Shown here: positions 3,132 through 16,034 of the stretch, one piece after another | Position numbering within the stretch: the first letter of the stretch is position 1 | Layout: the number at the start of each line of letters is the position of its first letter | Assembly (NCBI GenBank): GCA_039182715.1 | Contig: JBCDBY010000076.1 | Coordinates: 1-16,034 of the forward strand | DNA: 16,034 nucleotides | Direction of reading: 5' to 3' | From: Planctomycetota bacterium | Lineage (GTDB): Bacteria; Planctomycetota; PLA2 | The notes under the pieces: generated by a model | What the model saw: the letters and a program-made list of their open reading frames with translations, nothing else | The model's database searches: none | Told to the model about the DNA's origin: nothing | Position numbers and translations under genes: made by a program

Positions 3132-3272
3132 ACGTTGAACGTTCGACGTTCAACGTTCGGGGTGGGAAGTCATCGGAGGTTTGGGTGGCTTGCACCGTGC
3201 CATCCAGGTTTTCGGCGGCTCCGATGACTTCCCGCGTTGAACGTCCCACGTCACACGTCGAACGTTCCACAT
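3122..3272. repeat. Heptamer-arm palindromic element, copy A
   Basis: Left arm 3129-3156 is TGAACGT TGAACGT TCGACGT TCAACGT, with the first unit containing the TGA stop of the upstream gene. The core is a perfect 15-bp inverted repeat, GGGAAGTCATCGGAG (3164-3178) and CTCCGATGACTTCCC (3219-3233), around a 40-nt loop. Right arm 3239-3266 is GAACGTC CCACGTC ACACGTC GAACGTT. It fills the whole gap between convergent stops (3131 and 3277). Confidence 0.7.
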
Positions 3273-3276
3273 TTCC

Positions 3277-4866
3277 CTAGGCCGCTTCCGGCTTCGGGTC
3301 GTCGTCCTTCTTCTTCTCGTTCCCGTCGTCGGCGCCCTTGAGCTTGCCGAAGTACTCCGGCATCTCGACGCCGCCGACGTCGCGCATCATCTGGAGCATG
3401 GGCGGCAGGGTGCCGCCGAGCCCGCGCAGGAAGTTCGCGGTGGCGTTGGAGCCGTTGCCGTCGCTGCCGCCGTCCCAGACGACGACCTTGTCGAACTTGA
3501 TGTTGCTGATCGCCTGCGCCGCGGTCTCCGACAGGTGGTCGAGGTGCTCGAGCATGAGCATCTGGAACGCCGCCTGCGCATCGCCGCACGCACTCACGAT
3601 CTCGGCGAAACCCTGACCCTTCTTCTGCAGGATCTCGAACTGGCCGCGCGCCTCCGCCTCGAGCCGGGCGTAGATCGCGGCCGCCTCGCCCTCCGCCTCG
3701 ATGCGGCGCTTGTCCGCCTCCGCCTCGGCGTCGACGACCATCTTCGCCTTCTCGGCGCGCGCAACCGCCTCGAGCGCGGCGCGCTGCTCCGCCTCGACCT
3801 TGGTCGCCTCGGCTTCGGCCGCCGTCGCCTGCGCCTCGTACTGCGCCTTGAGCACCTCCGCCTCGGCGACGCGCTTGCGCGTCTCGCCTCGCTGGTACGC
3901 CTCGGCGCGCTCGACCTGCAGCTCGGCATTGGCGCGCGCGACAATCGCCTGCGCCTCGTTCTCACCCTTGACCGCCTGCGCGTCCGCGTCCGCCACGGCG
4001 ACGCGCTTCTCGCGCTCCGCTTCGGCGACCTTCGCTTCCGTCTGGTTGCGGGCGGTCTCCTCGCCGACGCGCGCGTCGCGGTCGAGGTTGGCGACCTGGA
4101 TGACGCGCTCCTTCTCCGCCTCCTTCGTGCCGATGTCGCGGTTCTTCTGGGCGATCGCGACGTCGATGTCCTTCTCGCGGTTGGCGCGCGCGACGCCGAT
4201 CGCGCCCGACTTCTCCTGCTCCGCCACGTCGATCTCGGCCTGCTGGATGGCGGTCGCCGCCGCCTTGCGGCCGATCGCCTCGATGTAGCCGGAGTCGTCC
4301 GTGATGTCGGTGATGTTCACGTTGATCAGCGAAAGGCCGATCTTGCGCAGCTCCGGCTCGAGGGAGTCCTGGATCGAGTTGAGGAACGCGTCGCGGTCGC
4401 GGTTGATCTCCTCGATGCGCATGGATGCGATCACCTGGCGCAGCTGGCCGAAGATGATGTCGCGCGCCTGAGCCTCGATGTCGCCGGGACGCAGGTTGAG
4501 CAGGCGCACCGCGGCGTTGTTCATCGCGCCCGGGTCGGTGCCGACGGCGACCGTGAAGACCGAGGGCACGTTCACGCGGATGTTCTCCAGCGAGAGCGCG
4601 CCCTTGAGCGGAATCTCGATCTGCAGCGGTTCGAGGTCGAGGTAGGCGTAGTCCTGGATGAGCGGCCAGACGAATGCGCCGCCGCCGTGATGGCAGCGGG
4701 CGGCGTTCTGACCGCCGACCTTTCCGTAGACGACGAGCACCTTGTTGGACGGGCATCGCTTGTAGCGCTTGATCAGCAGGATCAGGAAGCTGAAGAACAG
4801 CAGCGCGAGAACGACGACCAACAGCACCGTCGGATCGGAGAGGTTGATCGCGAACAGGGACGGCAT
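3277..4866 (-). CDS. SPFH/band-7 flotillin-like protein (FloT/YuaG-like) with long EA-rich coiled coil
   Basis: 529 aa. N-terminal membrane hairpin (VLLVVVLALLFFSFLILLI), an SPFH domain, then an extended Ala/Glu coiled-coil region. An RBS AAGGAGAAG lies upstream of the ATG. Confidence 0.8.
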   Translation of the reverse strand: MPSLFAINLSDPTVLLVVVLALLFFSFLILLIKRYKRCPSNKVLVVYGKVGGQNAARCHHGGGAFVWPLIQDYAYLDLEPLQIEIPLKGALSLENIRVNVPSVFTVAVGTDPGAMNNAAVRLLNLRPGDIEAQARDIIFGQLRQVIASMRIEEINRDRDAFLNSIQDSLEPELRKIGLSLINVNITDITDDSGYIEAIGRKAAATAIQQAEIDVAEQEKSGAIGVARANREKDIDVAIAQKNRDIGTKEAEKERVIQVANLDRDARVGEETARNQTEAKVAEAEREKRVAVADADAQAVKGENEAQAIVARANAELQVERAEAYQRGETRKRVAEAEVLKAQYEAQATAAEAEATKVEAEQRAALEAVARAEKAKMVVDAEAEADKRRIEAEGEAAAIYARLEAEARGQFEILQKKGQGFAEIVSACGDAQAAFQMLMLEHLDHLSETAAQAISNIKFDKVVVWDGGSDGNGSNATANFLRGLGGTLPPMLQMMRDVGGVEMPEYFGKLKGADDGNEKKKDDDPKPEAA

Positions 4867-4892: not shown

Positions 4893-5453
4893 TCAGATGG
4901 CGATGACGTCGAGGGTCTGGTCGCCCTCGACCGACACGACGCGGATGCGCGCGCCGGACGGGATCTCGTCACCGTCGGTGCGCGCCGGGAACTCGAGCGA
5001 GCGCCCCTGGATCTCGATGGTCACCTTGCCCAGCCCCTCGTGCGCGCCGGGGATGCGCAGATAGCAGGTGCCGCTCTTGCCGACCGCGTTCTCGATGCGG
5101 ACGGTGCCGCTCGACTGCAGGTTGGCGAGCCCGCGCATGAGCAGGCCGACGGCGAACATGCCGGCGACACCGGACCCGGTCGCCACCGCGAGTCGTACGG
5201 GCATGGCGGGCGAGCGCTCCATCATGATGAGGCCGACCAGACCGAAGATCGCGGCGAAGGCGCAGAGCGCCTTGAACGAAAGCACGCCGAAGAAGACGTT
5301 GCCGTGGCCGACGGGATCGCCGTCGGTGTCGAGTTCCGGCCCGTCCATGTCGATGTCCGCTTCGCCGAACAGTCCCAGCGTCTGCAGGACGACCTGCACG
5401 AGCACGAGCACGCCGCCGCCGACGGCGCAGATGGTGTAGAGATTGGCTTCCAC
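4893..5453 (-). CDS. NfeD-family membrane protein (YuaF/YqiJ-like), partner of SPFH proteins
   Basis: 186 aa from a GTG start, with GAGGGAG 7 nt upstream. N-terminal TM segments plus a C-terminal OB-fold-like soluble part. Sits immediately upstream and co-directional with the flotillin gene, the classic nfeD-SPFH operon. Confidence 0.7.
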   Translation of the reverse strand: MEANLYTICAVGGGVLVLVQVVLQTLGLFGEADIDMDGPELDTDGDPVGHGNVFFGVLSFKALCAFAAIFGLVGLIMMERSPAMPVRLAVATGSGVAGMFAVGLLMRGLANLQSSGTVRIENAVGKSGTCYLRIPGAHEGLGKVTIEIQGRSLEFPARTDGDEIPSGARIRVVSVEGDQTLDVIAI

Positions 5454-5566: not shown

Positions 5567-7051
5567 GTGAGAGGACATGGCGGGGCGTTTCTCATCGCCC
5601 TCCTCGTCGCGTGCGGCGGCGGAGGTGGCGGAGGCGGTACGCCGTTTCGGGTGACGGGTTCGTCGCCGGAGACGGGCACCACCGAAGCGGACATCGACGT
5701 GCCGGTTCTGATCGTCTTCAATCGGCCGGCCGACGTCGCCACGCTCAACCAGGAGACGGTCCGCCTCGAGACGGCCGACGGTGTCCCGGTCGGCGCGCGG
5801 ATCCTCGTGCAGGGATTCAACTCCGCGGCGGTCAACGTCGAGCCGTTCGCGAATCTCGACGAGAACGTCGGCTATCGCGTCGTCCTCAGCGGGGTCCGCG
5901 CGACGGACGGCACCGCGCTGGCGACGCAGACCGTCTGTTTCGTGACGCGCAGCAGCACGCCGACGGTCCGGCCCGACCAGCTGCTCGATCTCGGCGACGC
6001 CCTGCAGGTTCCGCGCTTCCGCGGCGTCTCGATCCGGATGCGCGACGGCCGGACCGCGGTCATCGGCGGCTACTCCGACCCGCAGACCGCGACCGACACG
6101 ATCGAGATCTACGAGCCCACGACGCGCGGCTTCCGGCTGCTGACCGCGCGCCTCACCGTGCCGCGCGCCGAGTTCACGGTGACGCAGCTCAACGACCGGC
6201 GCATCGTCATCGCGGGCGGCGTCTCCGAGCCCGGCGGCGCGCCGCTGGCGTCGACCGACATCTTCGACCCGGGCAGCGAGACGGTCGCGCCCGGCCCGTC
6301 GATGAACATCGCGCGCCGCGAGCATGCCGCCAGCGGATTCTTCGGCAACGATCGCCTCGTCGTCTCGGGCGGCTTCGACGCCGACGGCGAAGCGCTGGAT
6401 AGCCTGGAGGAGCTGCGGGGGACGACCTGGGAGATCATGCCTCTCACGCTGCCCGAGCCGACCGCGCAGGGCATTCAGGTCGCGTCGCTCTTCGACCGCA
6501 TCTACTTCTCCGCCAGCAACCTGCTCGGCATCAGCGGCTACATCAATGCGGCGGGGGAGATGGTCACGCGTGCGGAGGGCGACATCCGCTTCCGCCCGGC
6601 GTACGCGACGCTCTCGAACGGCGACTTCCTGATCATCGGCGGCGATACACGTTCGATGGTCACCATCGACATGTCCTCGGGTTTGCCGTGGGGCGCCAGC
6701 AGCTTCCTCCGCGAACGGCGCGGCCTGCACTCCGTGACCGTGCGCGGCAACAACGGACGGCGCCTGCTGGTCGTCGGCGGCTTCAACCGCGCCGTGCAGG
6801 GAGAGCCTCCGCTCACGTCGATGGAGATCGTCGATGCGCTCGATCCGGGCCCGTTCGGCTTCCCCGACGCGGTCGCCTATCGTGTCGACCCGCTGCGTCT
6901 GCCCGTGCCGTTCGCCGGCCACGTCGGATTTAACGACAACAGCGGCCGCACGATCATCGCCGGCGGCGTCGGCGACGGCGTCGGTCCCCACTCGCGCCGC
7001 GCGATCATGATCGTCGACAACGCGAATTCGCTCACCGTCGACTGCGATTGA
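5567..7051 (+). CDS. Kelch-repeat beta-propeller lipoprotein with N-terminal Ig-like (SbsA/Big-like) domain
   Basis: 494 aa. Signal peptide with lipobox LLVAC followed by a Gly8 linker. Repeated Kelch-like blades (AVIGGYSD, IVIAGGVSEPGG, LVVSGGFDADG, FLIIGGDT, LLVVGGFN, TIIAGGVGDG). The TGA stop lies inside the first heptamer of repeat copy B. Confidence 0.7.
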   Translation: MRGHGGAFLIALLVACGGGGGGGGTPFRVTGSSPETGTTEADIDVPVLIVFNRPADVATLNQETVRLETADGVPVGARILVQGFNSAAVNVEPFANLDENVGYRVVLSGVRATDGTALATQTVCFVTRSSTPTVRPDQLLDLGDALQVPRFRGVSIRMRDGRTAVIGGYSDPQTATDTIEIYEPTTRGFRLLTARLTVPRAEFTVTQLNDRRIVIAGGVSEPGGAPLASTDIFDPGSETVAPGPSMNIARREHAASGFFGNDRLVVSGGFDADGEALDSLEELRGTTWEIMPLTLPEPTAQGIQVASLFDRIYFSASNLLGISGYINAAGEMVTRAEGDIRFRPAYATLSNGDFLIIGGDTRSMVTIDMSSGLPWGASSFLRERRGLHSVTVRGNNGRRLLVVGGFNRAVQGEPPLTSMEIVDALDPGPFGFPDAVAYRVDPLRLPVPFAGHVGFNDNSGRTIIAGGVGDGVGPHSRRAIMIVDNANSLTVDCD

Positions 7052-7249
7052 ACGTTCGATGTTCGACGTTCGACGCTCGACGTTCGACGCTCGACGCTCG
7101 ACGCTCGACGCTCGACGCTCGACGTCAGCGATGGAGAGGCATTGAGGGTGCGGGCGAAGGGACCAAGTTGGCGCGTTCTCGTCGCCGCATCCCTCCGTCG
7201 CCTTCCTTGGTGAGACGTCAAACGTCAAACGTCGAACGTCAAACGTTCA
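7049..7249. repeat. Heptamer-arm palindromic element, copy B (expanded left arm)
   Basis: Left arm 7049-7125 is 11 tandem 7-mers: TGAACGT, TCGATGT, then TCGACGT/TCGACGC units including 5 perfect consecutive TCGACGC. GC-rich core 7126-7212 with imperfect long-range complementarity (gcgatggagagg with ccctccgtcgc, cgaaggg with ccttcc). Right arm 7213-7247 is AGACGTC AAACGTC AAACGTC GAACGTC AAACGTT. Both flanking TGA stops (7049-7051 on plus, 7247-7249 on minus) lie inside the terminal units. Confidence 0.75.
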
Positions 7250-8371
7250 CAAGTCCCGCAGCGACGGATACTTGAACCGCATCCCGTCCTGGAACCAGCG
7301 CGGGTACTCGGACCAGCGGGCGGCGACGACTTCGATGTCCTCGCGGTCCGGGTCGACCTCGAACTGGCCGGGCACGCTCGCCTCCACCAGCAGGGGTACC
7401 TTCACCCATTCGCCGCGGCGCGAGGTGATCTTCCAGGCGCGGACGTCGTCGACCTCGTCCTCGGAGACGCGACGCTCGGCGACTTCGACGCCGGTCACGA
7501 CCTGGAAGAGGTAGGTGGAGATCGCGGCGATGTCGTCGGGGAAGGCGACGAAGGGCTCGTCGAACTCGTCCGCGAAGACGAACAGTCCCTCGTGGATCTT
7601 GCCGTAGACCTCCTCGCGCGGTTCCGCCTGGAAGAGCGCGAGGTCCTCCGCCTCGAGGCACTGCGGCAGCGTCTGCCGGTCGGTGCCGGTGAGCTCGACG
7701 CGCAGGTGGTAGCGCCAGATCGTGCGCGGGTAGTCCTCGCCGACCTCCTGCGGGACGGGCAGCGGCTCCGCCGCGAGCCGCTTCTCGCTCGGCTCGCGCG
7801 TCACCGTCAGCACGCGGCGTCCCAGCCGGCGCCGCTCGACGCGTCCCAGCCAGGCGAGGTTGAGTGCATTGACGGTGAAGTGGCAGGCGACGGCGGGCCA
7901 GAGCGAGCCGCTCTCCTCGCGCAGGACGCCCAGCGCGATGCCGGCGAGAAACGCGAAGATCGGATACCCCATCAGCGCGCGCGCCGGCACCGTGTGCAGG
8001 ATGCCGAAGAGAATCGCCGTGCCCATGAGGCCGAGGTGCGGCCAGAGCGCGCCGCGGAAGAAGAGCTCCTCGGCGAACCCGGAGAGGGCGGCGAGCAGCA
8101 GCGCCTGCGGGATCGTGATCGGGCCGAGCATGCGCGCCATCAGCATCGTGGCGCGCCGTACGGGCCGGAAGATCGCGTGGCCCGCGTGGCAGAGCGCGAC
8201 AATTGCCAATCCGATTGCGATGCCCTGCAGAATCGATTTCGTCGTCGCCGCCTGGTCGCCGAGCAGCAGTTCGGTGTGCCCGAAGACGCTCGCGTAGAGC
8301 ACCGATGCGACGATCACGCCCACGTAGAACGCGCTCGCGATCCGAATCAGTCGGTTGTTGCTCGTGCCCAC
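7247..8371 (-). CDS. CPBP-family (Abi/CAAX-type) intramembrane metalloprotease fused to a C-terminal soluble domain of unknown function
   Basis: All three CPBP motifs are present: FAEELFFRG, FGILH and HFTVNAL. A roughly 200-aa acidic, non-membrane C-terminal domain follows with no motif I recognise. The longest ORF runs to 8455 but would overlap the upstream gene by 77 bp. I place the start at the in-frame GTG at 8371, just after the upstream TAA and adjacent to AGGGG; the start is uncertain. Confidence 0.65.
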   Translation of the reverse strand: MGTSNNRLIRIASAFYVGVIVASVLYASVFGHTELLLGDQAATTKSILQGIAIGLAIVALCHAGHAIFRPVRRATMLMARMLGPITIPQALLLAALSGFAEELFFRGALWPHLGLMGTAILFGILHTVPARALMGYPIFAFLAGIALGVLREESGSLWPAVACHFTVNALNLAWLGRVERRRLGRRVLTVTREPSEKRLAAEPLPVPQEVGEDYPRTIWRYHLRVELTGTDRQTLPQCLEAEDLALFQAEPREEVYGKIHEGLFVFADEFDEPFVAFPDDIAAISTYLFQVVTGVEVAERRVSEDEVDDVRAWKITSRRGEWVKVPLLVEASVPGQFEVDPDREDIEVVAARWSEYPRWFQDGMRFKYPSLRDL

Positions 8372-8378
8372 GACCCCT

Positions 8379-9356
8379 TTACCTTCGCATGGACCAGACG
8401 AGCGGGTTCGGTGAGTTCTGCATGGACTCGAAGGAGTCGCGATCGACCAGTCCACGCCACCCTTCCGCGATCCCGATCTGCGCCACGATGGAGCCGAGCG
8501 AGTTGCCGGGGCCGGGGAGGTAGAGCAGATCGGGCGCGAATTCGCGGAGCGCCGTGAAGACCGACGCGGAGAAGTCGTAGGTCTCGGTCACCTGCGCCCC
8601 GAGCGTGTAATTGCGTAGCGCGGCGGGATCCGCGACGAACGGCGTATGCGTGTGCCCCGTACCGTCGATCAGCGGCGTGGCCGGCGCGCGCCAGTCGAGG
8701 GGCCCCAACTGCGCGGCGGCCTTGTCCGCAACGCCGGCGAGCAGCGGCGTGTGATACGGGCCGTGCTGCGCGAGCCGGATCGGGTAGCGACCCTTGCCGA
8801 GTTCCGCCGGGGGTAGATGGAAGTCGTCGAGTGCCTCGTCGGTGCCGGCGATGACGGCGAACCCGCCGAGCTTGATCGACACGAAGACGCCTTCCTCTTC
8901 GCAGTACAGGACCTGTCCGAAGCGGTCGTCGTCGAGCCGCCAGTCCTCGCCCACAATCGGATAGAGCACCTGGCCCCCGGCCGGCGCCTCCATCTGGAGC
9001 TGCGCCATCTCCTGGACGAGGCGGAATCCGTCGTCGAACGAGAGCGCCCCCGCGACCGTCAGCGCCGTGTACCAGCCCATGGAGTTGCCGGCCACCGCGA
9101 CGATCTCGTGTTCGGCGGCGGCGCGCTCCGCGTCGAGCAGGCTGTGCAGCCAGATGAGCGGGGAGACGTGGTCGGGACGCAGCTGCACGGCGGCGTCCCA
9201 CGGCGCGTCCCGGTCGAGCGAGACCAGCGACGGCAGGCCGCGCGCGGCGCGCAGCTCGTCGGCGCGCCGGACGAGCGGGTGGTTCGGATCGAGCGCGCCG
9301 CGCGTCTGCTTCGTGTAGGAGCCGCGACCGGGGCAGATCAGCACGATGCGGCTCAT
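8379..9356 (-). CDS. FabD-like acyltransferase (malonyl-CoA:ACP transacylase fold; nucleophile motif GNSMG)
   Basis: 326 aa from the ATG at 9356, overlapping the upstream TGA in ATGA. N-terminal CPGRGSY parallels the MCAT FPGQGSQ motif, and GNSMGWYTAL parallels GHSxGEYxAL. The 5'-extended ORF to 9869 is a low-complexity Arg-rich shadow overlapping the E1 gene. Confidence 0.7.
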   Translation of the reverse strand: MSRIVLICPGRGSYTKQTRGALDPNHPLVRRADELRAARGLPSLVSLDRDAPWDAAVQLRPDHVSPLIWLHSLLDAERAAAEHEIVAVAGNSMGWYTALTVAGALSFDDGFRLVQEMAQLQMEAPAGGQVLYPIVGEDWRLDDDRFGQVLYCEEEGVFVSIKLGGFAVIAGTDEALDDFHLPPAELGKGRYPIRLAQHGPYHTPLLAGVADKAAAQLGPLDWRAPATPLIDGTGHTHTPFVADPAALRNYTLGAQVTETYDFSASVFTALREFAPDLLYLPGPGNSLGSIVAQIGIAEGWRGLVDRDSFESMQNSPNPLVWSMRR

Positions 9357-11614
9357 GCGGTCACCTCGCGTGCGGCCGCCTCGATCTCCTCTTCGGAGAC
9401 GAGCACCATGGGGGCGGTGGGGCCGAGCGGGATGAACGTGTCGGCGCTCCGCACGGACCGCAGCTTGCCGTCGTATCCGCGCTCCGCCAGTCGGGCAAGG
9501 ATCGCGTCGGCCACGCCGCCGCTCGCGCGGCACTCGTCGACGACGACGATCGCCGCGGCGGTGCTCGCCTCGCGCTCGATCGCTTCCCACGGCAGGGGGT
9601 TGAGCCACCGCAAGTCGAGGACGCGCGCGTCGAGCCCGGCGCGCCGCGCCACGCGGCGACACATGCGCACGCCGTTGGCGTAGCTGATGAAGAGCAGCTT
9701 GCCTTCGCCGTGCACGCCGGCCTCGCCCGGTAGCAGCGCTTCGCCCTGTGCCGGGTAGTCGCTCAGCCAGCCCTGGTCGCCCGGCTCGTGCAGGTCCTTC
9801 TCGTGGTACAGCGCAATCGGCTCGAGGAACGCGATGACGCGGCCGTGCTCTTTCGCCATCGTCAGGCATCCGCGCAGCATGCGCACGGCGTCCTCGCCGC
9901 GTGACGGTGTCGCGACCACCATGCCGGGAATCTCGCGCAGCGCGGCGATCGCGTTGTCGTTGTGGAAGTGGCCGCCGAACCCGCGCTGGTAGGCAAACGA
10001 GGCAATGCGCACGACCATCGGATTGGTGAACTGGCCCACCGAGAAGAACGAGAGCGAGCTCGCCTCGCCGCGCAGCTGGTCGATCGCGTTGTGCAGGTAG
10101 GCGAGGTACTGGATCTCCGGGATGGGCAGCAGGCCCGCCTGCGCCGCGCCCTGCGCCACGCCGAGAATCGTGGTCTCGTCGAGCAGCGTGTCGAAGACGC
10201 GCGCCTGGCCGAATCGCTCCTGCAGCCCGGCCGTCACGTAGTAGACGCCGCCCTTGCGGCCGACGTCTTCGCCGAAGACGACGATCTCGGGGCGGCGGAG
10301 CATCTCGTCGGCCAGCGCCGCGTTGATGTGCGCCCCGAGCGTGCGCTTGGTCGGCGCGGTCGCGGCCTCCGGCAGTCGCCCGCGCCAGAGTTCCGCGCGC
10401 GCATCCACCTCGATCGGCTCACTCGCCTTGCTTCGACAGTCCGGGTCCAAGTCGAACGACAGCGGGATCATGACCCCCTCGCGGGAGGCGAGGTGACCAC
10501 GGCCGGCGGCTTCCGGCTCGCAGGCTTCGACGCGTGTCCGCGTGGTGCGCAGGAGCGTGGCGATCGCGCCCGGCGTCGCCGCTCCGCGCTCGATCAGGAA
10601 GCGCGCATTGCGCAGCAGCGGGTCCTGGTCCTCGACCGCCTCGATCTCCGGCAGCTCTCGGTAGGTCGTCTCCACGTCGGAGCCCGCGTGGCCCCAGAGG
10701 CGCACCGTGCGGAGGTGGAGGAAGACGGGGCCTTTGGTGGCGCGGCAGGTCTCGATGGCGAGACGCGTCGTCTCCCAGATCTCGTCCAGCTCGCCGTCCG
10801 CCTCGAAGTAGCGCAGGTGCCGCAGGCCGCTGAACGCGTCGTTGATCCAGCGGCGCGGCGTGCGCACCGAGATGCCGATGCCGTTGTCCTCGCAGACGAA
10901 GAGCACCGGCACCGGGTTGCCGCGGCGATGCGCGTAGCGGGCGGCGTTGATGCCGGCCAACGCGGTGGCGTGGTTCGCGGACGCGTCTCCGAAGCTGCAG
11001 CAGACGAGCGCGTCGTGCGGGTGGTCGTGGTCGATGCCCAGTCGCCGCGCGCGCCCGAGAGCGAACGCCATCCCGACCGCCTTGGGCAGGTGGGACGCGA
11101 TCGTGCTGGTCTGCGGCGGCACGCCGAGCGGTCGGCTTCCCCAGACCTTGTGGCGGCCCTGCGCGATGGGGTCGTCGCGACTCGCGCACAGCGAAAGCAG
11201 CGTATCGAACGTCGGCGTTACCGACCCCAAGTGGCGCGACCGCGCCATCATGAACCCGCCACTGCGGTAGTGCAGCAGCGCGGGGTCCGTCACGCGCAGC
11301 TGCGTGCCGAGCACGGCGTTCTGTTCGTGGCCGGCGCTGGCGATCGTGTAGTAGCCGACGCCGCGCGCCTTGAGCCGTCGCGCCGCCATGTCGAGCTGGC
11401 GGCTCAGCACCTGGTCCTCGAAGAGCGCGCGCGCCTGCGCCGCGGTCAGGGAGCTGCCGGGCCGCACCGGTTCGTGCGAGGCCAGCAGGTGCGCGGCGGG
11501 CCGCGCGGTGGCGAGGTAGTTCTCGAGGTTCTGCTCGACGACGGTGACGCGGTCCGGGGGCACGCGGCAATTATGCCGGGTGCGTCGAACAGTCGGCCGT
11601 ATAACCGGGGGCAT
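9353..11614 (-). CDS. TPP-dependent 2-oxoacid dehydrogenase E1 component, fused alpha and beta subunits
   Basis: 753 aa. The alpha half has TPP-binding GDASANH ... VLFVCEDNGIGIS. The beta half has a transketolase-like pyrimidine-binding region, EIVVFGEDVG...ILGVAQGAAQAGLLPIPEIQY, and a C-terminal domain. The TGA stop overlaps the acyltransferase ATG. Exact start uncertain: the ATG at 11614 overlaps the divergent YtoQ ATG within GCATGC. Confidence 0.8.
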   Translation of the reverse strand: MPPVIRPTVRRTRHNCRVPPDRVTVVEQNLENYLATARPAAHLLASHEPVRPGSSLTAAQARALFEDQVLSRQLDMAARRLKARGVGYYTIASAGHEQNAVLGTQLRVTDPALLHYRSGGFMMARSRHLGSVTPTFDTLLSLCASRDDPIAQGRHKVWGSRPLGVPPQTSTIASHLPKAVGMAFALGRARRLGIDHDHPHDALVCCSFGDASANHATALAGINAARYAHRRGNPVPVLFVCEDNGIGISVRTPRRWINDAFSGLRHLRYFEADGELDEIWETTRLAIETCRATKGPVFLHLRTVRLWGHAGSDVETTYRELPEIEAVEDQDPLLRNARFLIERGAATPGAIATLLRTTRTRVEACEPEAAGRGHLASREGVMIPLSFDLDPDCRSKASEPIEVDARAELWRGRLPEAATAPTKRTLGAHINAALADEMLRRPEIVVFGEDVGRKGGVYYVTAGLQERFGQARVFDTLLDETTILGVAQGAAQAGLLPIPEIQYLAYLHNAIDQLRGEASSLSFFSVGQFTNPMVVRIASFAYQRGFGGHFHNDNAIAALREIPGMVVATPSRGEDAVRMLRGCLTMAKEHGRVIAFLEPIALYHEKDLHEPGDQGWLSDYPAQGEALLPGEAGVHGEGKLLFISYANGVRMCRRVARRAGLDARVLDLRWLNPLPWEAIEREASTAAAIVVVDECRASGGVADAILARLAERGYDGKLRSVRSADTFIPLGPTAPMVLVSEEEIEAAAREVTA

Positions 11615-12056
11615 GCAGTGGCACGTCTACCTCTCCGGCGAGATCCACACCGACTGGCGCGATCGCATCGCGGAGGGCATTCGCGCCCGCGATCTGCCGG
11701 TCGTCCTGAGCGCGCCCGTGACCGACCATCCCGCCAGCGACGACTGTGGCGTGTCGATTCTTGGCGCGGAGGAGAAGGGCTTCTGGAAGGACAACAAGGG
11801 CGCCGGGGTCAACGCGATCCGCACGCGCACCCTGATCGAGAAGGCGGACGTCGTCGTCGTCCGATTCGGCGACAAGTACCGCCAGTGGAACGCCGCCTTC
11901 GACGCCGGCTACGCGTCGGCGCTCGGCAAGTCGATCATCACGCTGCACGGCGAGGAACTCACGCACGCCCTCAAGGAGGTCGACCGCTCGGCGCTTGCCG
12001 TCGCCTCGGAGCCGGAGCAGGTGGTGGACATCCTCGAGTACGTCATCCGGAAGTAG
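11613..12056 (+). CDS. YtoQ-family protein (nucleoside 2-deoxyribosyltransferase-like fold)
   Basis: 148 aa. MQWHVYLSGEIHTDWR ... VVVVRFGDKYRQWNAAFDAGYA matches my memory of the Bacillus YtoQ family, including size. The upstream in-frame GTG at 11544 would overlap the E1 gene and was not used. Confidence 0.6.
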   Translation: MQWHVYLSGEIHTDWRDRIAEGIRARDLPVVLSAPVTDHPASDDCGVSILGAEEKGFWKDNKGAGVNAIRTRTLIEKADVVVVRFGDKYRQWNAAFDAGYASALGKSIITLHGEELTHALKEVDRSALAVASEPEQVVDILEYVIRK

Positions 12057-12061
12057 GTGCG

Positions 12062-12201
12062 TGGGACGTTCGACGTTCGACGTTGGACGTTCGCGGCAGG
12101 AAGTCGGGCGGAGGGCTTCCTGGTTCTGGAACCCCGCGACCGGGGACGACTTCCGATCGCAGCCGAAAGTACGTCGAACGTCCAACGTCCAACGTGCGAA
12201 G
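12062..12201. repeat. Heptamer-arm palindromic element, copy C
   Basis: Left arm 12062-12096 is tGGGACGT TCGACGT TCGACGT TGGACGT TCGcgg. The core 12097-12168 carries nested inverted repeats: caggaag with cttcctg, ggttc with gaacc, ccccg with cgggg, and GGAAGTCG (12100-12107) with CGACTTCC (12147-12154). Right arm 12169-12196 is GTACGTC GAACGTC CAACGTC CAACGTG. It fills the gap between convergent stops (12056 and 12202). Confidence 0.7.
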
Positions 12202-12660
12202 TCAGGCCTCGGTGCCTTCGAAACTCCTCAGCCGGTGCATGTGCCCCATCAGCGAGGCGGTGCCGGCCATGCCGAGCCAGGCGAAGAAGTTCATGTTGCC
12301 GGAGAGGATCAGGCAGCCGGTGGCGATGATCGGATAGCTGATGCTTCCTGCTCTCGCCCGTGCGGCGACGACGCCGGTGATCGCGCCGCACGCGGCGGCC
12401 CAGACGAAGATCACGGGGCTGCGGAAGATCCCGAAGATGTGAATGAAGACGAAGCAGGCGACCATCTCGAAGACGAAGACCTTGTACGTGTAGTTCCGCC
12501 GCTCCGCGCGCTCGGAGCCCTGGCCCTCCTCCCGCCGCCACGCCTCGCGCATCTCCTCCTGTACGTGCGCCGGGAGCCCCTGGAAGAACTCGTTCTCCTC
12601 CCGCGGATCGTGGATCCGGTCCTCGGGGATCTCGTGCAGCGCCTTCTCCATGCATTCCAT
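12202..12660 (-). CDS. small two-TM membrane protein with charged N-terminal region
   Basis: The minus-strand frame is confirmed by codon-position GC: 20/20 G/C at third positions over 12241-12300, versus 10/20 for the overlapping plus-strand ORF. Start placed at the ATG at 12660 (MECMEKALHEIPEDRIHDP...). The next ATG at 12651 is equally possible. Upstream of 12660 the codon bias becomes ambiguous, so the 222-aa ORF to 12870 is not supported. Confidence 0.5.
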   Translation of the reverse strand: MECMEKALHEIPEDRIHDPREENEFFQGLPAHVQEEMREAWRREEGQGSERAERRNYTYKVFVFEMVACFVFIHIFGIFRSPVIFVWAAACGAITGVVAARARAGSISYPIIATGCLILSGNMNFFAWLGMAGTASLMGHMHRLRSFEGTEA

Positions 12661-12690
12661 ATCGGCATCCGGACGGCCGATAAGAAACCC

Positions 12691-13128
12691 GTGGATGAAC
12701 GGGTCGAACAGCTCCGGCAGGAGTGGCTCGCCGAACAGGCGCGCCGCGACGTCGCGGACGGGAAGCGGCAGCAGCGCAACCGCCGCAACGCCGTGCTCGC
12801 TGGGGCGATGATCGGCATCGTCTCGACGATGGTCACCGCGCAGGTGACGCGCCGCGCGATCTTCTGGCACTCGTTCCTGCTCGAGGCGCTCTTCGGCGCG
12901 ATCGCCGGCTACGTGCTCGTCCGCCGCGGCGCCGACCCGCTCAACGGCGTCGTCTGCTTCAGCGTCGCCTACTTCGCCGCCTGGCTGCTCCGCGCGCTCG
13001 GCCTCGACCCGTCCGTGCTCTTCGCCGCCGGCGACCTGCGCGGCGCGCTGATGATCCAGGGCAACTTCACGAGTCTCTGTCTCACCGTGGCCTGCGGCGC
13101 CGCGGTGGGGCAGGTCATGCGGGATTAG
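12691..13128 (+). CDS. small multi-TM membrane protein
   Basis: The plus-strand frame has 20/20 G/C at third positions over 12961-13020, and a hydrophobic C-terminus (AIFWHSFLLEALFGAIAGYVLV...VVCFSVAYFAAWLL). Start tentatively the GTG at 12691. An alternative ATG at 12808 is preceded by GGGG. The 5' part of the 377-aa ORF from 11995 is antisense to real genes and to repeat C and was rejected. Confidence 0.45.
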   Translation: MDERVEQLRQEWLAEQARRDVADGKRQQRNRRNAVLAGAMIGIVSTMVTAQVTRRAIFWHSFLLEALFGAIAGYVLVRRGADPLNGVVCFSVAYFAAWLLRALGLDPSVLFAAGDLRGALMIQGNFTSLCLTVACGAAVGQVMRD

Positions 13129-13360: not shown

Positions 13361-15085
13361 CTACTTCGGCCTCCAGCCGTTCACGACCTTCTTGCTGAAC
13401 TCCTCGATCCGCTTCCCCAGCTCCTCCTCGCTCATGCCGAACGCCGCCTGGATGGACGTCTTGTCCTTCTGGCCGGTGTAGTAGTTCGTCACGTAGTCGA
13501 GCAGCGCGTCGCGGTACTTGCCGTTCTCGGCGTGATAGAGGTACGAGCACGCCGCACCCGACTGCTTGTAGAAGAGCAGCATCTCGCTCATGCCCATCGG
13601 GAACAGGTTCCACCGGCCCTTGTAGCGCGCCATCGGCTTCTGCGCGTCGACCTCGGTGTTCAGCTGCACCTTCGTGATGGTGAACAGCTTCTTCCAGTCC
13701 ATCAAGTTCTTCGCGCGCGCGATGGAGTCCACGGAGTCGAAGCTCATCATCTTCGGGTTGAAGTGCGCCCACTTGCCGCGATCGAGGTCGAAGCGCGTCT
13801 CCTGCAGGAAGACGGCCATGCCCTCGACGATCCAGACGCCCGGCGTCGTGACCGAGTCCTCGATCTTCGGCTGCTCCGGGCGCGACCAGCGGGGATTGCG
13901 CTCCTGGATCCAGTGGTGGGTCAGTTCGTGGACGAAGGTCTCCTTGACCGATTCCCACGCACCGGCCCGGTCGGGCCAGAAGAAGCGCGAGACGTTCTCG
14001 GACGGCACGTAGTGGCCCGCCGACATCGCGATCATCGGGTTCGGCGCCACGCCGCGTCCCATGCCCGAGAGCTCGATGTACTCCTTGCGATTCGCGTAAA
14101 GGTAGATGACGAGCGGATCGCTGTCCCCGCGCTTGGGGGCTTCCGTCTGCATCATCTTCGCCAGCGACTGCGCGGTGAAGCGCGCGATCGACACGCAGAG
14201 GCGCACGACGTCGGTCCGCTCCATCGGCGTGATGAAGACGATCTCGGATGTCTCCACGCCGAAGATCGGCTTCGACTCGAACTTGCCGGTGTCCGGGTTT
14301 CGCTGCGTCCAGAGCTGCTTGGCGCGCTCCATCTCCGGATGGCTCATGTCGAGCATGCGGATGCGGCCGAACTTCGACGGCAGCACGTCCACCTGCCAGT
14401 TGAGCCACACGCGCGTGCGCTCGCGCATCTTGGCGACCTGGTCCTTGCTGCGGCGGCGGCGCCGGCGGCGGCGACTGCCGGAGCGCGCGGCGCGACCCGA
14501 GGGGCCGACCTTGTCGAGCACCTTGAGGCCGTCCTCGTTCTCCGCGTCCGCGTTGAGCGCCTCGCGCAGCAGCTGCAGTCCGCGCTCCGACTCCTCGACG
14601 GCGCCGTTCGCCACGGCGCGGGTGGTGACGAACGAGGCGTACGCCTGGTCCGCGCCGAGGTCGAATTCGCCCTTCTTCTCGGCGTCGATCTTGGCGATCT
14701 TCGCCTTGAACGCGTCGAGCTCGTTCGGCTCGAGTCCGAGCCGGTCGCCCTGCTGCAGCAGCGCCCGCGCGGTGTCGCCCGCGCCGGCCTCGATCGCCTT
14801 CGTGATCAGCTCGCGGCAGCGCGTGCGCAGCTGGCGGTCGACGATGACGCGATAGGCGCGCAGCTGGTCGCGCAGCACCGGCTCGTTCTTGAGCTTGCCG
14901 GCGTCGTCCTCCCAGAGGAGCACGTCCGAGTTCGGCACGCTGCGGCCGGCCACCTGCAGGTTTTCGCCGCTTGCGGTTACCTCGCCCTCCAGGATCGTGC
15001 GGTCGCGCAGGACGACGGTGTCGCCGAGCGCGATCGAGGTGATCAGGAGCAGGCAGGTCAGTGAGTTCCGGTTTCTCGTCATCAT
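13361..15085 (-). CDS. secreted HEXXH zinc-metallopeptidase-like protein (gluzincin-type; signal peptide; internal Arg8 tract)
   Basis: 574 aa. N-terminal signal-like segment (LTCLLLITSIALG). HEXXH in FVHELTHHWI with a downstream Glu (VEGMAVF). Poly-Arg RRRRRRRR near residue 205. The ATG overlaps the upstream TGA in ATGA. Confidence 0.65.
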   Translation of the reverse strand: MMTRNRNSLTCLLLITSIALGDTVVLRDRTILEGEVTASGENLQVAGRSVPNSDVLLWEDDAGKLKNEPVLRDQLRAYRVIVDRQLRTRCRELITKAIEAGAGDTARALLQQGDRLGLEPNELDAFKAKIAKIDAEKKGEFDLGADQAYASFVTTRAVANGAVEESERGLQLLREALNADAENEDGLKVLDKVGPSGRAARSGSRRRRRRRRSKDQVAKMRERTRVWLNWQVDVLPSKFGRIRMLDMSHPEMERAKQLWTQRNPDTGKFESKPIFGVETSEIVFITPMERTDVVRLCVSIARFTAQSLAKMMQTEAPKRGDSDPLVIYLYANRKEYIELSGMGRGVAPNPMIAMSAGHYVPSENVSRFFWPDRAGAWESVKETFVHELTHHWIQERNPRWSRPEQPKIEDSVTTPGVWIVEGMAVFLQETRFDLDRGKWAHFNPKMMSFDSVDSIARAKNLMDWKKLFTITKVQLNTEVDAQKPMARYKGRWNLFPMGMSEMLLFYKQSGAACSYLYHAENGKYRDALLDYVTNYYTGQKDKTSIQAAFGMSEEELGKRIEEFSKKVVNGWRPK

Positions 15086-16034
15086 TGGCCGATCACCTCG
15101 GGCTGCAGGCAGAGAATCTTCTTCTTGTCTCTGGATACGACCATCAGCCGGTCGTTTTCAACCGGCACCGGGCGCAGGCTCACGCCTTTTTCCAGCAGCT
15201 TGCGCTCGGGCCGTTCGTGCAGATGCCAGAGAATGCGGTTGGCGTTGAGGTTGCCGCACCAGAGGCCGGGGCAGAACCACTCGCCCAGCGCGATCGGCAT
15301 GGCCGCGCCCCGCAGCAGGTCCTTGCGGTCGTCCGCGTTGACGAGCGGCCGCTTGTTGTTCTTGACGCCCTTCGACTTGGGCGGCGAGTGGTACCGGTAG
15401 AGCATGAAGGTGCGCTCCTTGTCCACGAAGCCCATGGCGCTGCGCGGGTAGAGCATCGGCTCTTCCGTGAAGGGAACCTCCCACGGGCGGGAGAGCGCGA
15501 GCTTGCCGTCCTCGACCGTGCGGCGCACCAGCACCCAGCGATCGCCGACCCGCACGCACGCCAGGTCGTTGTTGACCGCGACGAGTCCGTCCTTCGCACC
15601 GGCGCCGAGCTGCACGCGCGCGACTTCGCGGCCGTCGAGGCGGGCGCGGGCGACGAGGCTCGCCTTGTCGCCGCTCGTCTCGATCGAGTAGATCTCGTTG
15701 CCGTAGAGGGCGGGCGCGCCGAGGGCATTGCTGCCTTTCGACCAGGCGGGTTTGTCGCTGCCGGGCCGCAGCCGGAACAGCTGGCCGCCCTGGGTCAGGT
15801 AGAGCTCGCCGCGGAAGATGCAGGGCGCGCTCGCGTCGGGCTTCAGCTCGGTGCTCCAGCGCCGCACGAGCCCGCTGCCGCGTCGGCGCCACTGCACCAG
15901 GCGGTTGCCGAGGTGGAGGAAGGCGGCGCCGTCGTCGAGCGCGGCGCCGCGCACCGTGCCGACCTTCTCGCTTGCGAGCTTCTTGCCGGTCTCCCCGTCG
16001 AGCACGAAGAGCTGCTCGCCGACCTGCACCCAGA
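15082..16034 (-). CDS. PQQ-like/BamB-like beta-propeller repeat protein, C-terminal portion; 5' end outside window
   Basis: The frame is open to the window edge. It shows repeated beta-propeller-like blades (LYLTQGGQLF, IYSIETSGD, LVAVNNDLACVRVGDRWVLV). The stop overlaps the start of the metallopeptidase gene, so the two form an operon. Confidence 0.55.
   Translation of the reverse strand, partial: WVQVGEQLFVLDGETGKKLASEKVGTVRGAALDDGAAFLHLGNRLVQWRRRGSGLVRRWSTELKPDASAPCIFRGELYLTQGGQLFRLRPGSDKPAWSKGSNALGAPALYGNEIYSIETSGDKASLVARARLDGREVARVQLGAGAKDGLVAVNNDLACVRVGDRWVLVRRTVEDGKLALSRPWEVPFTEEPMLYPRSAMGFVDKERTFMLYRYHSPPKSKGVKNNKRPLVNADDRKDLLRGAAMPIALGEWFCPGLWCGNLNANRILWHLHERPERKLLEKGVSLRPVPVENDRLMVVSRDKKKILCLQPEVIGQ

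Follow-up and report, generated by a model that had tools for sequence, protein, structure and literature searches.

A fused E1 dehydrogenase and a FabD-fold acyltransferase form a conserved gene pair and a candidate 2-oxoadipate to glutaryl-CoA module lacking an E2 core

The window, which is the whole 16,034-nt stretch of planctomycete DNA that was analysed, contains three tightly spaced genes on the reverse strand. The first gene (9353..11563) encodes a fused E1 alpha/beta thiamine diphosphate (ThDP) enzyme of 736 residues, the second (8379..9356) encodes a FabD-fold Ser-His acyltransferase (AT) of 325 residues, and the third (7247..8371) encodes a CPBP intramembrane glutamic protease fusion of 374 residues. 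Direct reading of the sequence revealed that the E1 stop codon (TGA, 9355-9353) and the AT start codon (ATG, 9356-9354) overlap in the ATGA at 9353..9356. The AT stop codon (TAA, 8381-8379) is followed by a 7-nt spacer, AGGGGTC (8378-8372), which is purine-rich and Shine-Dalgarno-like, and then by the GTG start codon of the CPBP gene at 8371, the stop codon of which lies at 7249-7247. All three reading frames showed GC3 values of 0.90-0.93, and the NCBI protein calls for AT (325 aa, P0001) and the CPBP fusion (374 aa, P0391) were the same as ours. The tight layout of the original prediction was therefore confirmed in the sequence. The longest E1 open reading frame extends to an ATG at 11614 (753 aa); however, because the homologue alignments start at residues 17-22 of this long frame and the NCBI call (P0121) has 736 residues, the GTG at 11563 is most likely the true start.

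The unit is bounded at the 5' end by a divergent YtoQ-family gene on the forward strand (11613..12056; Pfam Nuc_deoxyri_tr3, E 1e-65; TIGR03646, above cut-off), which is separated from the E1 GTG start by 49 nt and for which the homologue alignment begins at residue 24 of the open reading frame (ATG 11613). The divergent orientation of this upstream neighbour excludes an operon that continues into E2 and E3 genes on that side. At the other end, TRF identified two heptamer repeat arrays (7052-7125 and 7210-7246, spanning 7052..7246), which pair as a stem of approximately 32 bp straight after the CPBP stop codon (RNA fold of -112 kcal/mol, z = -7.3). No comparable hairpin was found between the three genes. 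At its 3' side the transcription unit probably ends in the paired arrays, a boundary common to a convergent Kelch gene, and E1, AT and CPBP are probably carried on one transcript in this genome. No E2, E3, ACP or lipoyl gene was found anywhere in the window, as originally noted for E2 and E3. The window also contains a fatty-acid desaturase gene, 6 kb away.

The E1 chain is composed of an alpha part (approximately residues 1-365), a linker (approximately 366-410) and a beta part (approximately 411-736), and its E1_dh, Transket_pyr and Transketolase_C domains each scored over the Pfam cut-off. The best PDB relatives were the alpha and beta subunits of Thermus BCKDH E1 and the Pyrobaculum E1 beta subunit, and the JGI annotation reads '2-oxoisovalerate dehydrogenase E1 component' (branched-chain). 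In the family alignment, the motifs FGDAxxNH, CEDNGIGIS, DTLLDET, RLWGHAGxD and GFGGHFHND were invariant, as were both histidines used for the reductive acylation of lipoamide. Comparison with the BCKDH/PDH E1 enzymes of Thermus (1um9) and Geobacillus (1w85) revealed the same three domains, ThDP motif and activating Glu, together with both catalytic His residues (the alpha GH(S/A)xSD motif and the equivalent of beta His128). In contrast to these heterotetrameric enzymes, the window E1 combines alpha and beta in one chain and has no E2 or E3 operon partner; its scores fell far under the NCBIfam equivalog cut-offs (118 vs 454 and 74 vs 411), and its substrate loop reads GRHKVWGS, whereas canonical E1 alpha has GRQMPxH.

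AT matched the PDB structures of FabD in a phmmer search (E 1e-13), and its AF2 model (pLDDT 89.9) matched E. coli FabD (1mla) with a Foldseek E of 6e-18 and a TM-score of 0.73. The two proteins share a two-subdomain fold, the positions of the Ser-His dyad and a GPG..LG C-terminal motif, although their identity is only 20-26%. AT had no Pfam match, including Acyl_transf_1, and scored below the NCBIfam cut-offs for FabD (TIGR00128, 43.5 vs 260.9) and MdcH. The phmmer alignment to FabD and the family alignment placed the dyad at Ser92 (9083-9081, reverse strand) in GNSMGWY and His202 (8753-8751, reverse strand) in HGPYHTPL. In particular, the GHSLG of FabD is replaced by GNSMG, Gln11 by Arg11 (in PGRGSY), and the malonyl-binding Arg117 is lost, with Met117 (9008-9006, reverse strand) at its position; this Met would fit an acyl group without a carboxylate equally well. 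Unlike FabD, AT was always partnered with an E1 gene and never with fab genes in the loci examined.

Of 79 informative species-level GTDB loci from Planctomycetota and Chloroflexota, 78 have E1 as the gene immediately before AT, as do one Acidobacteria contig and all 62 informative sister-clade metagenome loci; a 4-bp gene overlap is present in 62 of 73 related loci. The flanking genes varied among loci. Among 278 flanking genes, no Pfam family that recurred was E2, E3, lipoyl or ACP; KS and FabH did not recur either, and ACP or KS was never nearby. One protein (P0338) joins the E1-beta C-terminus, a linker and AT in frame. Its contig carries septin, metacaspase and ART genes and two frame-shifting gaps that fit introns and, on this sequence evidence, encodes a eukaryotic multi-exon E1-alpha-beta-AT gene for one polypeptide; this fusion lacks a lipoyl domain and the space to accommodate one. 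The expectation that E1 and AT form a coupled pair lacking E2 and E3 was thus upheld by near-universal adjacency, the 4-bp overlap and the in-frame eukaryotic fusion, and E2 and E3 genes just upstream, the arrangement that would have spoken against it, were found neither here, where the upstream neighbour is YtoQ, nor among the recurrent flanking families. The pair represents a two-enzyme family that is widespread, uncharacterised and divided into two sister clades. The window and Ruegeria proteins are 48% (E1) and 44% (AT) identical and have the same signature motifs, those common to both clades being PGRGxY, GNSMGWY, GGQ..YP and HxxYH in AT and GRHKV.GS in E1. Close E1 orthologues (approximately 65% identity) were also found without an adjoining AT (L084, L088 and L090), which indicates that E1 can work without one, and an E3-like gene adjoins one of them.

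The sister clade (Ruegeria, Shewanella and metagenomes) provided a metabolic context, as its E1-AT pair adjoins a glutaryl-CoA dehydrogenase (GCDH). Two Ruegeria strains have a divergent LysR gene followed by an AspAT-type aminotransferase, an acyl-CoA dehydrogenase, E1 and AT, and Shewanella has the acyl-CoA dehydrogenase, E1 and AT. This dehydrogenase is a GCDH, with E-values of 4e-192 and 9e-182 to the Burkholderia enzyme and 3.5e-166 and 4e-178 to the human enzyme; a GCDH is also encoded by the gene that diverges from the eukaryotic fusion (E 1e-141). Of the 38 sister-clade loci whose upstream DNA was long enough, 18 have GCDH as the next gene upstream of E1 and in the same orientation. 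The aminotransferase belongs to the class Ib aspartate type, whose substrates are dicarboxylic amino acids, and in the sister clade and the eukaryotic contig the pair is often accompanied by an acidic-amino-acid aminotransferase and a LysR regulator. In contrast, no GCDH was present within 10 kb in any of approximately 90 window-type loci, and the AT tree shows two distinct sister clades, with the GCDH-linked members not bracketing the clade of the window.

We infer that the pair probably converts a 2-oxo acid into an acyl-CoA and tentatively favour, as the best reading, a 2-oxoadipate to glutaryl-CoA module in which AT replaces the E2 catalytic core, a conversion that a 2019 report described as not yet seen in bacteria. 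E1 would use ThDP to decarboxylate a 2-oxo acid, for which 2-oxoadipate is the likeliest candidate, and would reductively acylate the lipoyl arm of a housekeeping E2, borrowing it in the way that mammalian DHTKD1, the E1a of OADHc, borrows E2o and E3 (PMC8146983). AT would then move the glutaryl group from the lipoyl thioester onto Ser92 by means of the Ser92-His202 dyad and hand it to CoA, feeding GCDH. A borrowed lipoyl arm is likely because E1 retains both lipoyl-directed histidines, and CoA is suggested as the acceptor because the sister clade is wired to catabolism through GCDH, the aminotransferase and LysR. The earlier proposal of an ACP-bound primer for lipid or polyketide synthesis fits poorly with this catabolic context and with the lack of ACP or KS nearby. 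The sister-clade function is extended to the window's own clade by inference, and 2-oxoadipate as the substrate in this planctomycete is an equally tentative assignment.

The same E1-AT may act on a different 2-oxo acid, such as a branched-chain or other aliphatic one, in the window-type clade (Planctomycetota, Chloroflexota and Acidobacteriota), where a monocarboxylic acyl group loaded onto CoA or ACP would be catabolised or would prime fatty-acid synthesis. The JGI name, the BCKDH-type PDB matches, the Met in place of the carboxylate-binding Arg117, the lack of GCDH near window-type loci, the separation of the two AT clades and the desaturase gene in the window are consistent with this. However, the AT and E1 signature residues are common to both clades, identities of 48% and 44% are typical for isofunctional orthologues, and no ACP, KS or FabH recurred among the flanking genes; we consider a different substrate unlikely.

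Rather improbable is a role of AT as an editing thioesterase, with E1 using a complete housekeeping E2/E3, whose core makes the acyl-CoA, and AT clearing stalled glutaryl or other acyl groups from the shared lipoyl arms. FabD-fold acyl hydrolases occur in trans-AT PKS systems and offer a precedent, and the E1 orthologues without an adjoining AT suggest that AT may be accessory. Glutaryl-lipoyl adducts persist and otherwise inactivate OGDHc, and their removal needs the mammalian serine hydrolase ABHD11 (PMC12643935), of which AT would be an analogue. Nevertheless, the strict 1:1 translational coupling and the E1-AT fusion better suit a stoichiometric catalytic partner than a repair enzyme, and hydrolysis would waste the thioester, while the operon partner GCDH requires glutaryl-CoA.

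The original prediction dispensed with the lipoyl relay; in such a hand-off, the ThDP-bound acyl group of E1 would move straight onto Ser92 of AT and from there to a thiol. Phosphoketolase and the turnover of fluoropyruvate by PDH E1 provide examples of acyl-ThDP chemistry. Across more than 150 loci, the surroundings of the pair contain no lipoyl, E2 or E3 gene, the two genes are translationally coupled, and the fusion leaves no room for a lipoyl domain. This hand-off is unproven and appears improbable, since both lipoamide histidines are invariant and oxidative decarboxylation needs a two-electron acceptor, none of which is encoded, so that either a hitherto unknown oxidant or the non-oxidative formation of acyl-ThDP would be required. 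Moreover, one E1 orthologue without AT adjoins an E3-like gene, and mammalian E1a lives entirely on borrowed E2 and E3 (PMC8146983).

The third protein consists of an Rce1-like/CPBP protease domain (residues 1-186, approximately 7814-8371), a disordered linker (187-210) and a soluble C-terminal domain of approximately 165 residues (211-374, approximately 7250-7741). The latter had no Pfam or PDB relative, and this orphan cytoplasmic-side domain distinguishes the protein from the CPBP/Rce1 family (SpdC/LyrA, 6u0o; Rce1, 4cad). The CPBP gene follows AT in about nine of the loci examined, all in one planctomycete subclade and with equally tight spacing (L001-L003, L005, L038, L048, L051, L082 and L087). 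That all three genes form one pathway carrying 2-oxo-acid-derived acyl groups to a membrane step, as first suggested, would suit the shared strand, the 7-nt gap, the lack of a terminator before the strong hairpin past CPBP and this recurrent trio but is highly improbable, because CPBP is not beside AT in approximately 70 of 80 window-type loci and all sister-clade loci examined, is displaced by two genes in L023, belongs to a fusion family of only about 80 clusters, all from Planctomycetota, and, in L086, which largely refutes the idea, is retained in the orf15082, M9-like, YtoQ, CPBP and Kelch backbone with E1-AT missing. Conservation of the neighbourhood therefore held for E1-AT and failed for CPBP. 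The pair is very probably the functional unit, and CPBP is a positional neighbour, probably co-transcribed, outside the conserved module.

Several known systems resemble the pair in part. Two of them are precedents for a non-canonical transferase that takes over the acyl product of an E1-type ThDP enzyme. In acetoin dehydrogenase, an E1-type ThDP enzyme is combined with AcoC, an alpha/beta-hydrolase-fold E2 that handles the acyl product, and in the glycolyl-ACP system QncN/QncL/QncM an E2-like protein passes a C2 unit to ACP; AcoC and Qnc carry their own lipoyl domain, whereas the E1-AT pair has none. A functional parallel is the mammalian 2-oxoadipate dehydrogenase complex (E1a/DHTKD1, E2o/DLST and E3), which also has a dedicated E1 without its own E2 or E3 and feeds glutaryl-CoA to GCDH in lysine and tryptophan catabolism (PMC8146983), and the logic of this pathway matches the sister-clade context of aminotransferase, GCDH and E1. 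DHTKD1 is, however, a homodimeric SucA/OGDH-type E1 and works without a FabD-like partner, since transfer to CoA is the task of the E2o core, whereas the window E1 is a fused alpha-beta enzyme of the BCKDH/PDH type. ABHD11 likewise directs a serine nucleophile at glutaryl-lipoyl thioesters of the 2-oxoadipate pathway (PMC12643935), which is the task proposed for AT, but it has an alpha/beta-hydrolase fold rather than that of FabD, performs hydrolytic repair and is not genetically coupled to E1.

The Planctomycetota MAG contig was 16,034 bp long, with approximately 68% G+C. Gene calling was based on GC3 and agreed with the NCBI proteins for the window; clustering of six-frame ORFs proved unreliable, as the high GC content produced long spurious ones. 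As evident from the gene map, an S8 peptidase fragment (2–571) and DinB (576–1103) on the plus strand were followed by a fatty-acid desaturase (1117–2130, minus), an unknown protein (2193–3131, plus), flotillin (3277–4866) and NfeD (4893–5453) on the minus strand, and a Big_5/Kelch lipoprotein (5567–7051, plus). The three genes under study occupied the minus strand: the CPBP intramembrane protease fusion (7247–8371), the FabD-fold acyltransferase, AT (8379–9356), and the fused α/β thiamine-diphosphate (ThDP) enzyme, E1 (9353–11563). Beyond them lay YtoQ (11613–12056, plus), a small membrane protein (12202–12870, minus) and two unknown secreted proteins (13361–15085 and 15082–16032, minus). The gene of the small membrane protein overlapped a long ORF on the opposite strand (12061–13128, plus); neither had a significant Pfam match, and GC3 supported the minus-strand 222-aa protein over the plus-strand ORF (0.86 versus 0.76).

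Direct reading of the sequence reproduced the tight gene coupling of the original prediction exactly. In particular, the E1 stop and the AT start overlapped in ATGA at 9353–9356, and the AT stop codon (TAA, 8381–8379) was separated by 7 nt (AGGGGTC) from the CPBP start (GTG at 8371). The E1 start was most likely GTG 11563, giving a protein of 736 aa, rather than ATG 11614. The unit was limited on its 5′ side by the divergent YtoQ gene and on its 3′ side by a stem of approximately 32 bp, formed by two heptamer-repeat arrays just past the CPBP stop codon. The promoter/terminator scan found no terminator-like structure between the three genes, no sigma-70-like promoter, and three weak terminator-like sites where 1.4 were expected by chance. 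Since the unit is bounded and no terminator-like structure lies inside it, E1, AT and CPBP are likely to be co-transcribed. With E1 starting at GTG 11563, the divergent YtoQ/E1 intergenic region was only 49 nt, and one palindromic GCATGC held both the YtoQ ATG (11613–11615, plus) and the upstream ATG of the long E1 ORF (11614–11612, minus). Neither Rfam families, including the TPP riboswitch, nor tRNAs were matched in the window.

Paired arrays of ACGT-containing heptamers (ACGTTCG/ACGTCAA and variants) occupied all three convergent intergenic gaps, at 3126–3158 and 3241–3259, 7052–7125 and 7210–7246, and 12060–12093 and 12169–12195. RNA folding of the pair 3′ of the CPBP gene gave −112 kcal/mol for its stem (z = −7.3). 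Comparable arrays were found in none of 90 related loci, which suggests a REP-like or bidirectional-terminator element specific to this genome. We also observed that the arrays gave rise to the pseudo-peptides ERSTFNVER/TSNVERR in spurious ORFs.

The E1 protein matched the Pfam families E1_dh, Transket_pyr and Transketolase_C with 77.1, 72.9 and 51.0 bits (cut-offs of 22, 27 and 25.9), and among solved structures it stood nearest to heterotetrameric E1s, including both chains (α and β) of the Thermus BCKDH enzyme. Alignments at residue level with 1w85_B, 1um9 and 1dtw were read by the roles that the ThDP/Mg motif, the activating Glu and the catalytic His residues have in α2β2-type E1s. Four motifs were invariant among 21 family members: FGDAxxNH...CEDNG, the ThDP/Mg motif (canonically GDG...NN); DTLLDET, with the activating Glu in β; RLWGHAGxD, with an α histidine equivalent to that of GHSxSD; and GFGGHFHND, with a β histidine aligned with His128-β of 1w85 (Geobacillus). 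We take the two conserved histidines to be those that serve reductive acylation of lipoamide. E1 fell far below the cut-offs of the NCBIfam PDH/BCKDH equivalogs, with best scores of 118.6 against 454 for E1 β and 74 against 411 for E1 α. Additionally, the GRQMPxH loop of canonical E1 α was replaced by GRHKV.GS in both clades of E1–AT loci described below.

The AF2 model of AT (pLDDT 89.9) had the FabD α/β plus ferredoxin-like fold and matched 1mla in Foldseek with an E-value of 6e-18 and a TM score of 0.73; AT also aligned with FabD structures at the sequence level. Its Ser-His dyad, Ser92 (GNSMGWY) and His202 (HGPYHTPL), aligned with FabD Ser92 and His201 and was invariant in the family. The two proteins were not identical in other active-site positions. 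FabD Arg117, which binds the malonyl carboxylate, was Met117 in AT, Gln11 in the FabD motif GQGSQ was an invariant Arg11 in PGRGSY, and the nucleophile elbow was GNSMG instead of GHSLG. AT scored 43.5 against the FabD model TIGR00128 (cut-off 260.9), was also far below the MdcH cut-off, and matched no Pfam family, including Acyl_transf_1, at E ≤ 0.01. Of 1.84 billion representatives searched, a family profile recovered only 546 clusters at E ≤ 1e-10 and 174 at E ≤ 1e-30. Judged by these sequence scores, AT belongs to a discrete family that is not FabD. PADLOC found no defence-system match for E1, AT or CPBP.

AT was present in at least 364 species when a single genome from each GTDB species was scanned, and annotation errors are accordingly widespread. 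The AT family (P0001 and relatives) was uniformly labelled "ACP S-malonyltransferase" despite the absence of the malonyl-binding Arg; several E1 orthologues (among P0137, P0148 and P0207) were labelled "MFS transporter" in NCBI records, and the JGI label was 2-oxoisovalerate dehydrogenase E1. All of these names are probably wrong.

The 80 closest AT loci came from Planctomycetota and some Chloroflexota (Limnocylindria). E1 immediately preceded AT in 78 of the 79 that had upstream DNA, and the overlap was 4 bp in 62 of 73; the pair was also present on one Acidobacteria contig. The sole exception was L043 (342–3084), in which AT was preceded by a 533-aa protein with a weak chlorophyllase/α/β-hydrolase match. 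Outside the pair, the neighbouring genes of window-type loci differed between lineages. Across 278 flanking genes (positions ±1 to ±3), the Pfam families seen repeatedly included GHMP kinases, DUF2807, EamA, DinB and HD domain, which we considered as functional partners and attributed instead to lineage synteny. The families 2-oxoacid_dh, Biotin_lipoyl, Pyr_redox and PP-binding were not among them, and the window itself held no E2, E3 or lipoyl gene. Thus, the ordinary dehydrogenase complex that would arise from E2 and E3 genes just outside the window is not what these neighbourhoods show, and the non-textbook pairing of an E1 with a Ser-acyltransferase was borne out.

Close E1 orthologues (approximately 65% identity) with no adjoining AT were found in Gemmatimonadota and on two unclassified metagenome contigs (three proteins, one locus shown for each), and all nested within the AT-linked E1 tree. 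In L088 (2130–10866), several Amidohydro_2 and SnoaL-like genes came before such an E1, which faced an E3-like Pyr_redox_2/Pyr_redox_dim gene. AT needs E1, but a neighbouring AT is not always needed by E1.

The metabolic context of the pair was revealed by copies in cultured bacteria, which were found by tblastn of plasmids. In two Ruegeria chromids, a divergent LysR gene was followed by a PLP aminotransferase, an acyl-CoA dehydrogenase, E1 and AT, with 4-bp overlaps, while a Shewanella aestuarii plasmid carried the acyl-CoA dehydrogenase, E1 and AT. These operons contained no E2, E3 or lipoyl gene. The dehydrogenases matched glutaryl-CoA dehydrogenase (GCDH) from Burkholderia (E-values of 4e-192 and 9e-182) and human (3.5e-166 and 4e-178), and these matches unambiguously identify them as GCDHs. 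The aminotransferase belonged to the aspartate type of class Ib, which acts on dicarboxylic amino acids. Scanning metagenomes with the proteobacterial-type AT added 80 loci, in which E1 adjoined AT in all 62 informative cases. GCDH immediately preceded E1 in the same orientation in 18 of the 38 sister-clade loci with enough DNA; the aminotransferase was directly upstream in three metagenome loci and a divergent LysR was present in four. To our knowledge, 2-oxoadipate is the sole 2-oxo acid in established pathways that gives the GCDH substrate by oxidative decarboxylation. It is the transamination product of 2-aminoadipate, and its conversion to glutaryl-CoA is a familiar step of mammalian metabolism (DHTKD1, glutaric aciduria). 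Much as in L088, the Ruegeria operon (L093, 10141–12023) continued with genes of the Amidohydro_2 and SnoaL/NTF2-like types, neither of which turned up in the remaining sister-clade loci. Amidohydro_2 includes ACMSD, which belongs to the kynurenine pathway leading to 2-oxoadipate, and these neighbours may hint at tryptophan catabolism.

Linkage to GCDH was also found in a eukaryote. The profile search recovered P0338, in which the E1-β C-terminus ran in frame through a Pro/Ser/Ala linker into an AT with PGRGSY and GNSLGWY intact. Its gene lies on ENA metagenome contigs (L091, 6415–10096, plus, and L092) with 63% GC that carry septin, SAP-metacaspase and ART genes, and the E1 and AT matches were split by two frame-shifting gaps of approximately 250 nt, consistent with introns. 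We conclude that it looks like a eukaryotic multi-exon E1-α-β-AT gene; it could not accommodate a lipoyl or ACP domain, and the gene divergent from it was GCDH (E-value of 1e-141). A metagenome scan for the fusion yielded no further copies, so that the fusion is one gene on three contigs. Other fusion candidates were rejected: P0321 was a chimera or deletion joining mid-E1-β to mid-AT, P0387 had an out-of-frame, Arg-rich N-terminus, and P0343 and P0303 were frameshifted.

An AT tree rooted with E. coli FabD contained two sister clades, one GCDH-linked, with Proteobacteria-type sequences, Shewanella and the eukaryote, and the other holding the window with Planctomycetota, Chloroflexota and Acidobacteriota. 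The window proteins shared 48% (E1) and 44% (AT) identity with those of Ruegeria, and all signature motifs were common to both. Linkage of the pair to GCDH and a 2-aminoadipate-type aminotransferase, as expected of the proposed 2-oxoadipate to glutaryl-CoA module, was seen in the sister clade and on the eukaryotic contig and was absent locally in window-type loci, with no GCDH within 10 kb at the window or any locus of its clade. In seven related loci an AspAT-like gene lay on the opposite strand at a distance of 4–6 kb; it was considered as a partner and judged to be synteny. Because the GCDH linkage is missing in the window's clade while the motifs are shared, we rated the claims separately. 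The pair probably yields an acyl-CoA from a 2-oxo acid, and 2-oxoadipate is a tentative choice of substrate in this planctomycete. A different, monocarboxylic substrate throughout the window's clade would fit the missing GCDH; with the motifs held in common, we consider it unlikely.

In the mechanism that we propose, E1 would glutarylate a lipoyl arm borrowed from the host, AT would transfer the glutaryl group from this arm to CoA, and the host's E3 would reoxidise the arm. Borrowing of the arm would explain why the E1 histidines are conserved while E2 and E3 genes are missing, and unloading to CoA would explain the coupling of E1 to AT, their fusion, and the descent of AT from a dicarboxyl-thioester transferase. 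AT might instead be an editing enzyme, as glutaryl-lipoyl adducts persist and their removal needs the serine hydrolase ABHD11 (PMC12643935). The FabD descent and the coupling and fusion to E1 are what CoA transfer would explain, and an ABHD11-like role appears improbable. The lipoyl-free hand-off of the original prediction, taken here as direct passage of the acyl group from ThDP on the PDH/BCKDH-type E1 to the AT serine and on to CoA, would make the pair (one protein in the eukaryote) self-sufficient and, if true, a new route from a 2-oxo acid to acyl-CoA (glutaryl-CoA) that dispenses with E2, lipoate and E3. The fusion has space for no lipoyl domain, and E1 keeps both lipoamide-type histidines; we regard this route as quite improbable. 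The biosynthetic or ACP-dependent role also suggested was unsupported.

The third protein is a bona fide CPBP protease, with PF02517 above the cut-off, invariant EExxFRG, FGxxH and HxxxN motifs and an Rce1/SpdC fold; its C-domain was compared with folds in the PDB. A CPBP fusion gene 3′ of AT was confined to a small subclade of planctomycetes. L086, a relative of the window, retained its backbone of orf15082, M9-like, YtoQ, CPBP and Kelch genes (40–73% protein identity) and lacked E1 and AT; E1–AT therefore behaves as a two-gene cassette placed before a pre-existing CPBP gene. Of the predicted trio, E1 and AT are kept together and the three genes jointly are not, and the pair is very probably the unit, with CPBP as a neighbour outside it. 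A single three-gene pathway, which the 7-nt spacing and likely co-transcription would suit, is unlikely given the CPBP gene of L086.

The conserved E1–AT pair, next to GCDH and an acidic-amino-acid aminotransferase, is a candidate for a missing step in bacterial lysine/tryptophan catabolism, and the pair is cloneable and present in cultured Ruegeria and Shewanella. Full-text searches turned up no paper that pairs a fused E1 with a FabD-like protein; E1 and AT belong to known superfamilies, and the literature searched gave no description of a 2-oxo-acid dehydrogenase E1 whose E2 core is replaced by a FabD-fold transferase. Whereas α2β2-type E1s work in a complex with a cognate E2 (lipoyl, PSBD and catalytic core) and an E3, for the most part encoded in one operon with them, this E1 has no such partners beside it. 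If the proposal is true, AT would be the first FabD-fold transferase to substitute for the E2 catalytic core. A close parallel is the mammalian 2-oxoadipate E1a, which lacks a dedicated E2 or E3 and assembles into hybrid complexes with OGDHc (PMC8146983), and borrowing of lipoyl carriers by an E1 would then not be peculiar to mammals.
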